Virus record (IMG/VR): IMGVR_UViG_2579778842_000011
Coordinates: 1-44,866 of that record
DNA length: 44,866 nucleotides
Source: a virus
Lineage: Duplodnaviria > Heunggongvirae > Uroviricota > Caudoviricetes
Reading direction: 5' to 3' (one strand)
The stretch's first letter is position 1. Each line of letters begins with the position of its first letter. A program made the translations under genes and the position numbers. The notes beneath the pieces are model-generated. The model was not told the DNA's origin. It saw nothing but the letters and a program-made list of their open reading frames with translations, and searched no databases. Of the stretch, positions 7,874 through 8,642 are shown one piece after another.

Positions 7874-8299
7874 ATGTATCCCGTCGACCTTCATATGCAT
7901 ACCGTTGCCAGCACACATGCATATAGCACATTGAGTGATTACATTGCCCAGGCCAAACAAAAGGGCATTAAACTTTTTGCGATCACCGATCATGGCCCGG
8001 ATATGGAAGATGCTCCGCATCACTGGCACTTCATTAACATGCGTATCTGGCCGCGAGTGGTTGATGGGGTAGGGATCCTGCGCGGCATCGAAGCTAACAT
8101 TAAAAATGTTGATGGTGAAATTGATTGCAGCGGTAAAATGTTTGACTCGCTGGATCTGATTATTGCCGGTTTTCATGAGCCGGTTTTTGCACCACATGAC
8201 AAAGCGACCAATACACAAGCGATGATCGCCACTATCGCCAGCGGCAATGTGCATATAATAAGCCATCCCGGAAATCCAAGATTAGTAAACCCCCAATAA
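7874..8299 (+). pseudogene. ycdX: ycdX (PHP-domain phosphoesterase) truncated after about codon 135 by prophage insertion
   Basis: N-terminal [18 protein letters not shown]...ISHPGNP matches YcdX, then the frame runs into AT-rich foreign sequence and stops (RLVNPQ*); the remaining ~110 codons are not found anywhere in the window. Confidence 0.8.
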
Positions 8300-8350
8300 C
8301 TAAAATTTTTATTCATCGAATCGTTTGATTGATTAGTGAGCGGTTGAACG

Positions 8351-8405
8351 AAAAAAGATGAAAAAACTTCGAAAAAATTTCAAAAAAGACTTGACAAAAT
8401 CAAAA
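8351..8405. repeat. Phased A-tract array (predicted intrinsically bent DNA)
   Basis: A6 tracts at 8351, 8361, 8372, 8382 plus A4 tracts at 8395 and 8402, i.e. about 10-11 bp periodicity. Confidence 0.6.
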
Positions 8406-8642
8406 GGTACTGTTCCACGGGTGAAATAAAGGGAGTTTTCGGCACCCCGGTTTTTGATGTGCGTGTGAGATTTCAAAACAGGTGCAGTGCAGCCCACCAG
8501 CGCGGTCGCTACGCGACTATTAACACCCGCTAATCCCTTTCCCCGCCTCGATCTTTCCCTTCGTTATAAAGCGTTTTAGGCGCTCTCCTGAATGCGCAGA
8601 TCAGATAAATAATTTTACGCAAATTTAATGGAGGATAACCGG

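Follow-up and report, generated by a model that had tools for sequence, protein, structure and literature searches.

The locus

The DNA considered here is the IMG/VR virus record IMGVR_UViG_2579778842_000011 (Caudoviricetes), a stretch of 44,866 nucleotides (nt) that is called the window below; it contains the left end of an Escherichia coli prophage that interrupts the host gene ycdX. From the left, a CP4-like island is followed by tRNA-Ser(GGA) at 6560-6647, by ghrA and by ycdX, which starts at 7874. Prophage sequence extends from about 8275 to the end of the window, and just inside the junction lie one half of the phage attachment site attP, an array of A-tracts, a conserved border with the hexamer TTGACA and a gene for a small terminase subunit (terS); the integrase gene is found at the other end. 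The predicted length of the prophage is about 36.6 kilobases (kb), and its content, as annotated in its relative PSJ-22, includes portal, capsid, tail and lysis genes. The interval 8265-8420 is very probably the left attachment site (attL) of this temperate prophage, which has a gpA-type large terminase, a Nu1-like small terminase and long-tail genes.

The junction in ycdX and the crossover dinucleotide

In a BLAST comparison of the junction with 5,426 complete E. coli genomes, 5411 proved to contain the 5' part of ycdX, with a median of one copy, so that the interrupted gene is a single-copy gene and not a paralog. The host-derived fragment of the window (7874-8274, plus strand) shows 100% identity with intact alleles along 404 nt, and identity to uninterrupted ycdX always stops at window base 8277, i.e. 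at position 404 of the 7874-8700 query. The same ycdX-prophage junction occupies the gene in 23 of the 5426 genomes, and empty sites also exist. At the protein level the intact allele reads ISHPGNP followed by KYEIDV; the open reading frame (ORF) of the window leaves KYEIDV after the junction and continues into phage DNA as far as a stop codon at 8297-8299. A previous interpretation, made from the sequence alone (the sequence-only reading), had placed a prophage-host junction inside ycdX at about 8275-8280; the junction is indeed there and its position was correct within a few bases, the true crossover lying slightly to the left.

The exact point could be defined by alignment to an uninterrupted allele, as that reading had proposed. 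The attL of most relatives reads ggaAA joined to CCCGAACG, the right attachment site (attR) of PSJ-22 reads taggcAA joined to tcccaaat, and the empty host site (attB) is ccggaAAtcccaaat; apart from AA, at positions 8273-8274 (plus strand) of the window, no letters are shared by majority attL, attR and attB. PSJ-22 is the closest relative, with a prophage that covers 93% of the phage part of the window at 92-98% identity, and both of its ends are available: attB ccggaAAtcccaaatatg, attR ttaggcAAtcccaaatatg and attL cccggaAAcccgaacgtag, the last being found also in all the other ycdX-integrated relatives examined. In the window, raw identity extends to 8277 because its own phage arm (P') starts with TCC, a chance match to ycdX.

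When the left part of attL and the right part of attR of PSJ-22 are joined at AA, ycdX is reconstituted over 738 of 738 nt of an uninterrupted allele. The left half of the window joined to the right half from PSJ-22, the attR of the window being outside it, encodes a protein identical to intact YcdX at 246 of 246 positions, stop included. As the sequence-only reading had supposed, the right junction lies beyond the window: PSJ-22, with 97.6% identity along the final 592 base pairs (bp), has 44 bases between the start codon of an 89-amino-acid (aa) gene and the crossover, and the junction is thus predicted about 44 nt past the window end. That gene (44597-44866, minus strand; phrog_6147 match), the first of a leftward operon that ends with the integrase, has a ribosome-binding site, and the window ends with its ATG, at 44 nt from the predicted crossover. 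A direct search with two patterns for the circular attP junction found no occurrence in viral or metagenome collections.

The enzyme responsible would be the large serine recombinase of 559 aa encoded at 42299-43978 (minus strand), in agreement with the serine integrase assumed in the sequence-only reading. It matches the Pfam domains Recombinase (1.1e-08) and Zn_ribbon_recom (1e-10), the phrog_95 integrase profile (2.3e-63) and, across residues 5-259, the DNA invertase profile phrog_125; the N-terminal motif YIRFSSMRQ is visible, and the Pfam Resolvase domain was not reported at E<=0.01. The protein is 99% identical to that of PSJ-22 and 98% to that of the relative TO6. By exchange at AA 8273-8274 this recombinase would insert the phage into ycdX, with phage DNA starting from 8275.

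The sequence-only reading had also taken the compositional break as a sign of recent acquisition. The break is real (GC content of 0.51 in 7001-8000 and 0.36-0.47 across the prophage and the remaining window); a recent acquisition is plausible, and is better backed by the 404-nt identity with intact alleles and by the occupancy of 23 of 5426 genomes than by composition.

Architecture and variants of attP

The P' half of attP occupies 8275-8310 (plus strand), with a symmetric arm that ends at about 8301 and a family-conserved extension, AATAACTAAAATTTTT, at 8295-8310; the homology common to all the relatives, whatever DNA follows, ends after AATAACTAAAATTTTT. In the reconstructed attP, 17-18 of 30 arm positions are mirrored only when the site is centred on AA, the figure being 4-10 at centres shifted by 1-3 bp. 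The mirrored arms are GTTATTGTGGGTAC on one side and GT(C/A)AACCCCCAATAAC on the other, with GTTATTG(T/G)GGGT as the mirror motif, and the symmetry extends about 27 bp out from AA. For the site of the window the P arm was taken from PSJ-22, since its own lies outside the window; the expected attP junction is TTAGGCAA joined to TCCAAGATT, also written GATATTAGGCAA joined to TCCAAGATTAGTAAACC.

These properties are those of large-serine-recombinase attachment sites such as those of phiC31, Bxb1, Listeria A118 (LI integrase) and SPbeta. The likeness includes an integrase with Recombinase and zinc-ribbon domains, an attP of about 50-55 bp whose arms, imperfect inverted repeats, flank a non-palindromic core of 2 bp (here AA), and insertion inside a gene that excision would precisely rebuild; as judged from the comparison of relatives, flanking accessory DNA would be dispensable here too. 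An attP of about 50 bp suffices for serine integrases, which need neither accessory proteins nor auxiliary DNA (PMC5499577). Differently from those systems, the ycdX target and this E. coli phage lineage, with its sisters in hicB and codB, are absent from the phage collection searched, and attP is found at the extreme late, or packaging, end of the genome, with terS only about 370 bp away. The gene ycdX is a target not previously described for the attL of a large serine recombinase.

The phage family uses three target genes, ycdX, hicB and codB, with P arms of the form TAGG(C/T)AA. The core is exactly AA in hicB; in codB the overlap is GGTAA, and the crossover was placed at AA by analogy. The P' arm of the window is itself peculiar near the crossover: at 8275-8287 (TCCAAGATTAGTA) it differs at 6 of 13 positions from all the other ycdX-integrated relatives examined (CCCGAACGTAGTC), despite flanking DNA that is about 98% identical and integrases that are 98-99% identical. 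An analogous P' variant, likewise closer to its own attB, is present in a hicB-integrated lineage.

The A-tract array

About 50 bp after the end of attP, Tandem Repeats Finder reports an array of about four copies with a period of 10-11 bp at 8349-8392 (plus strand). It consists of four A6 tracts at 8351-8356, 8361-8366, 8372-8377 and 8382-8387, whose starts are spaced by 10, 11 and 10 bp, and it can be also described as an 18-nt unit duplicated at 21-bp spacing. The sequence-only reading had counted six phased A-tracts between 8351 and 8405. Four of them stand; the other two are A4 runs (8396-8399 and 8402-8405) that flank a 'TC', at spacings of 14 and 6 bp, and are short and out of phase. 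If phased A-tract bent DNA is defined by at least three A4-6 tracts at the helical period, the array, with four A6 tracts, belongs to this class.

An array of this kind is not expected by chance. Four A6 runs within 45 bp did not occur in any of 300 first-order Markov simulations of the phage part, the maximum of three being reached in seven of them, and the array is the only place in the window with four same-strand runs of at least five A inside 60 bp. The AA periodicity at 10-11 bp is the highest of the window. Predicted curvature points in the same direction, and the strong bend expected by the sequence-only reading is confirmed to this extent: the 42 bp centred at 8368 rank first in the 44.9-kb window, with 88 degrees against a mean of 21 (standard deviation 11), in a wedge model with approximate parameters, of which only the rank is to be trusted. 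As for coding or RNA functions, the array region has no Rfam match at E<=10, and its folding z-scores, +0.69 and +1.47, give no significant RNA structure. Two small ORFs that overlap it were discarded: the ATG of a lysine-rich one of 23 aa (8358-8429, plus strand) is lost by a one-unit deletion in the relatives EC24 and FXCREC043, and the region around the GTG of a phenylalanine-rich one of 54 aa (8333-8497, minus strand) differs among relatives.

The array and the cargo slot in relatives

The relatives used for comparison, 58 in number, are the E. coli genomes with the conserved terS-upstream block that is described below. The array is present in 12 of them, as 11 prophages in ycdX and one in codB, and it is always accompanied by a 32-bp stretch, GAATCGTTTGATTGATTAGTGAGCGGTTGAAC, at 8318-8349, which is invariant except for one base in the eight aligned array-class relatives, the codB-integrated one included. 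The number of units ranges from three to four. In the two relatives with three (EC24 and FXCREC043) exactly one unit is gone and the rest keep their spacing to TTGACA, one of the two having in addition a last tract that is 2 bp longer. Tract lengths in this class range from A5 to A8, with one tract of A7 or A8 in some genomes.

Among the relatives homology breaks at about 8310 and resumes at 8382-8390, which delimits a slot at 8311-8387. Elsewhere this slot contains the gene of a 101-aa protein, an LprI-family gene (lysozyme-inhibitor-like, Pfam), a GIY-YIG nuclease gene or a short insert without a clear gene. Where a cargo gene is annotated it has minus-strand orientation, and every cargo class shares a leftward intrinsic terminator, AGCCCTGTCCTTGTGATGGGGCTTTTTT, directly beside attP. 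Thus, 8311-8387 appears to be a variable cargo (moron) slot between attP and the border sequence GACTTGACAA, present in this phage in its empty version; the assignment is very probable, at a level that holds jointly for the cargo slot and for the attL described above.

Comparison within the family also indicates what the array is not needed for. TO6, a cargo-class prophage in ycdX, has an integrase 98% identical to that of the window and is 99.7% identical over 8382-8700, yet it is without tracts 1-3; in total, 12 of the 23 ycdX-integrated relatives, with integrases 98% identical, are without the array. Since relatives of the TO6 type lack the array despite a nearly identical integrase and terS-upstream block, the array is not needed for integration or packaging. 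As far as can be judged from these alignments, it is part neither of attP nor of the packaging site, and is dispensable. The sequence-only reading had considered bent DNA unexpected beside a serine-integrase site; that the A-tracts are not needed by the enzyme agrees with their absence from relatives with 98% identical integrases and with the end of attP some 50 bp before them.

A comparable arrangement reportedly exists in the Pseudomonas phage phiCTX, where ctx lies between cos and attP as an example of cargo genes beside attachment sites. In both systems the DNA between attP and the packaging end accommodates accessory genes that can be exchanged and have a terminator of their own; in this window, conversely, the slot is empty and is taken by the A-tract array.

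The conserved border and the possible role of the array

The right border of the slot, GACTTGACAA, is at 8388-8397 (plus strand) and contains TTGACA at 8391-8396, where the sequence-only reading had noticed it. The full motif is found in most slot classes and CTTGAC in every one, even with unrelated upstream DNA; variants are GCTTGACAA in the LprI class and TTGACC at a few loci. The centres of the A6 tracts fall at -41.5, -51.5, -62.5 and -72.5 relative to this hexamer, if it is numbered as a -35 element. Subsites for the C-terminal domain of the RNA polymerase alpha subunit (alpha-CTD) are found near -43 (proximal) and -53 (distal), with more sites on the same helix face (PMC3326320). The array is similar in this respect to promoter UP elements and phased upstream A-tracts, such as those of rrnB P1 (Estrem 1998 and Aiyar 1998, as cited in PMC3326320), having tracts on one face near -43, -53, -63 and -73 of a perfect TTGACA. 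It is different from the rrnB P1 type in that there is no -10 element, so that a core promoter is not demonstrable, and in that the array is lost in most relatives.

On the circular map of the phage, the minus strand encodes every gene on the left side of attP, from the 89-aa gene through small genes to the integrase, and the plus strand encodes terS; because of these opposite orientations, the roughly 410 bp from the ATG of the 89-aa gene to terS must hold divergent promoters. In the reading preferred here, the array would be an AT-rich, intrinsically bent spacer within this divergent control region, with a leftward integrase-operon promoter embedded in attP on one side and the rightward terS/cos block on the other. 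It would offer in-phase sites with narrow minor groove to the alpha-CTD of RNA polymerase or to nucleoid proteins, and in this way modulate transcription around the GACTTGACAA border without being required. Such a modulatory role in transcription is proposed tentatively, as its likelihood is well short of even. For the complete explanation, attL structure together with modulatory bent spacer, the chances of being right and of being wrong are about balanced.

Several observations weigh against this role. The array is missing in 46 of the 58 relatives, whose homology to the window begins at 8382-8390 or later, and the changes in copy number, together with a G interruption (AAGAAA in PSJ-22), fit weak or no selection. 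The hexamers found 16-18 bp after TTGACA are GTTCCA, TTCCAC and TCCACG, with no -10 among them, and with a hypervariable segment of 25 bp following TTGAC and the missing -10, TTGACA may be no -35 element at all. The borrowed P arm and the approximate wedge model, mentioned above, count on the same side. The suggestion of the sequence-only reading that the A-tracts belong to a promoter UP region is thus only partly sustained: the A6 centres fit the alpha-CTD subsites, but no -10 is present 16-18 bp after TTGACA in any of the five spacer versions seen among relatives.

A consensus promoter scan of 8100-8800 on both strands gave no sites, with 1.7 expected by chance. A sigma-70 promoter at TTGACA was discarded in either direction, no -10 being detected by this tool or by a looser scan. 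A sigmaE-type promoter on the minus strand (GGAAC-N17-TCAAG, from 8416 down to 8390; consensus as in PMC1312014) was discarded as well, since it fits spacer version 1 only; in two other versions, that of 23CRST001 included, GGAAC is found by eye at 8 and 11 nt from TCAAG. The segment in question, at 8396-8421, is 25-27 bp long; the relatives have five or more unrelated versions of it, nearly uniform in length, between strictly conserved flanks (GACTTGAC and TGAAATAAAGGGAGTTTTCGGCACCCC), which suggests that it is a specificity determinant of some kind.

The first alternative to a modulatory spacer is that the array has no function and is a filler, i.e. a slippage-prone AT-rich repeat of 10-11 bp (or 21 bp) in an empty slot, its bend being a by-product; the repeat may derive from the AT-rich leader or promoter region beside the 101-aa cargo gene. 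This agrees with the absence of the array from 46 of 58 relatives, with its three to four units, A5-A8 tract lengths and one G-interrupted tract, with the internal duplication of two 21-bp units and with the resemblance, by eye, of GTGAAAAATATTTTCGATTATTTATAAAAAAGAC in the 101-aa class to units 2-4. On the other hand, a filler is not expected to be, with its 32-bp companion, nearly invariant across the ycdX and codB attP/integrase modules and across differing terS-proximal blocks, nor to keep its tracts in alpha-CTD register to a perfectly conserved TTGACA. On this evidence a functionless filler is as simple an explanation as a modulatory role and only slightly less likely.

H-NS favours curved AT-rich DNA, and no other phased segment of the window is as curved or as AT-rich as the array. 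It could be a nucleation site for H-NS, or for another nucleoid protein, that silences or insulates the prophage end, either by blocking readthrough from ycdX into terS or by shielding attL. The truncated host gene just before the array is transcribed in the direction of the prophage, and a plus-strand terminator was not found between gene and array. Nevertheless, this would be a candidate site as predicted from base composition and curvature, and the cargo-class relatives are without a comparable array at this place, which makes a nucleation site improbable.

The small terminase, its upstream block and cos

The Nu1-like gene that the sequence-only reading had placed downstream is the ORF at 8643-9197 (plus strand), with an alternative upstream ATG at 8628. 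It is only distantly Nu1-like: the product matches phrog_57 'terminase small subunit' over its full length (E=2e-15), and lambda Nu1 falls in the same group (1.3e-76). BLASTP aligns the two proteins only in the N-terminal helix-turn-helix (27 aa, 33% identity), Pfam Phage_Nu1 gives 15.4 bits, below its cut-off of 30, and a search of the PDB with TerS returned spurious matches only. The large terminase (terL, 15588-17492), of the gpA type, contains gpA ATPase and nuclease domains. The two genes are separated by 6.4 kb of opposite-strand genes, a repeat region and the gene of a Rha-family regulator (13437-14324), an unusual layout for a terminase pair of lambda type.

Upstream of terS, at 8422-8642 (plus strand), lies a conserved, mosaic block with GCGCGGTCGCTACGCGAC at 8500-8517, kept in all the 58 family-carrying E. 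coli genomes. It is presumed to be the location of cos and of the terS promoter. The similarity of this region to lambda cos is that of shuffled sequence (score 17, against 16.6 +/- 2.3 for shuffles). In about 35 loci the type of the TerS helix-turn-helix and the type of the upstream block are linked, with the exception of one recombinant, 14EC007, which combines a type-A helix-turn-helix with a type-B terS-proximal block; their covariation, tried as a means to locate cosB, was uninformative owing to this linkage.

The sequence-only reading had proposed a cosB-like function for the A-tracts. In lambda, Nu1 starts at +191 and cosB lies between cosN and Nu1; by analogy, with a lambda-like terminase pair cos would be expected within about 200 bp upstream of terS, which leaves the array 50-150 bp outside. 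The array in fact precedes terS by 255-290 bp and falls outside the conserved block; it is absent in the 46 relatives mentioned above, TO6 included, so that a cosB-like element is not sustained. The system is similar to lambda cos (cosQ-cosN-cosB, with its IHF-bent I1 site) in having about 250 bp of conserved non-coding DNA before a gene for a Nu1-like TerS, and a predicted bend nearby; it is different in that the bend is upstream of the conserved block and not between cosN and terS, in the lack of sequence similarity and in the distance of terS from terL.

A modified form of that idea is that a static bend on the cosQ, or right-end, side of cos aids terminase assembly or termination. The lambda-like terminase pair, with gpA domains in TerL and a TerS grouped with Nu1 in phrog_57, is consistent with a packaging accessory. 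Conversely, the array is on the wrong side of cos and too distant for cosB, there is no similarity to lambda cos, and relatives 99.7% identical over 8382-8700 are without tracts 1-3. A packaging accessory is thus very improbable.

Phased repeats are reportedly bound by P2 Cox and 186 Apl, and phiRv1 Xis is said to be a DNA-binding directionality factor that acts with a serine integrase. That the four direct repeats, on one helix face and 75-115 bp from the crossover, are binding sites for such a recombination directionality factor, which would bend attL during excision, is hardly credible, given that about half of the ycdX-integrated prophages (12 of 23) do without them, that serine integrases need no auxiliary DNA (PMC5499577) and that no candidate factor was identified.

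A candidate promoter split by integration

The leftward promoter assigned above to attP derives from a scan of the reconstructed attPs, in which a sigma-70-like promoter, TTGACT-17-TATCAT, spans the crossover. The -35-like hexamer, which integration would leave orphaned, is at 8284-8289 (minus strand) and reads TTTACT here and TTGACT in most relatives; the change at 8275-8287 that distinguishes the window from the other ycdX-integrated prophages thus weakens it. Its -10 partner, TATCAT, belongs to the P arm and is located some 20-25 nt past the window end. The score is 10 of 12 in PSJ-22, TO6 and DEC5A (hicB type) and also in 39EVA (codB type), where the sequence is TTGACC-17-TATCAT, and 9 of 12 in the version of the window; promoter matches of at least 10 of 12 have a background of 0.10 per kb per strand in the window. 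The codB-type attP has other arm sequences, with the hexamers placed 7+2+8 bp around the core instead of 9+2+6 bp, and keeps the 17-bp spacer. The first gene of the integrase operon has a good ribosome-binding site, and its ATG follows the promoter at a distance of about 30-40 nt; in attR the host DNA at the -35 position scores 2-3 of 6. The -35 also overlaps the symmetric arm motif, which the integrase may itself constrain.

On the basis of these matches, attP may double as the promoter of the integrase operon, which would be split by integration, leaving the operon silent in the lysogen, and rebuilt on excision or infection; this is a real possibility, somewhat short of an even chance. Integrase bound at attP would occlude the promoter and thus repress its own synthesis. 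The array and the cargo slot would lie upstream of this promoter switch, and the terminator shared by the cargo classes would insulate it from cargo transcription.

Promoters at the junctions of circular mobile elements include Pjunc of the IS2 and IS911 minicircles (PMC3219604) and Pcirc of ICEclc (PMC5812530). The likeness is in a predicted promoter that is complete only in the circular form, here with the -35 on the P' side and the -10 on the P side. Differently from both, the candidate described here is inside the attP of a serine-integrase phage, where integrase binding should occlude it, and it is a prediction from sequence; furthermore, ICEclc relocates an intact promoter, whereas in this phage the promoter would be split.

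Other features of the window

The CP4-like island at 1-6410, adjoining tRNA-Ser(GGA), contains genes for DUF932, the CbeA antitoxin, the CbtA toxin, DUF5983 and DUF4942; two mobile elements, this island and the prophage, are thus found in one window with about 1.9 kb between them. The prophage also encodes a UvsW-like helicase and a GIY-YIG-related protein with a CapR domain. In an iteron-like array at 11622-11809, TTTTTGCCCCTGAAA occurs seven times with a spacing of about 21 or 42 bp, in 1.4 kb of low-GC non-coding DNA, and more repeats (ACTAGATGAT.CTAGA) are present at 12010-12229; these arrays may be a replication origin or a regulator-binding array.

As regards the distribution of the family, neither the DNA nor TerS has a match to known phages among 50,697 phage records, where the best TerL match is 43%, and no relatives of TerS beyond E. 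coli were found in GTDB species representatives. The relatives in IMG/VR are all prophage extractions that start in host genes, with no virion-type contig among them.

Significance

The DNA noticed at the left end of this prophage for its predicted bend is a genuine but dispensable feature, and the junction beside it is largely ordinary for a serine-integrase prophage. The analysis defines attB, attP and an AA core for an uncharacterised large serine recombinase of E. coli, whose sister lineages target hicB and codB. Serine integrases are widely used in genome engineering, and the definition of this attB/attP pair could be useful in that field. If the split promoter is true, it would represent a compact natural design, in which the site of a serine integrase serves both as recombination substrate and as sensor of the integration state for the expression of the integrase itself.

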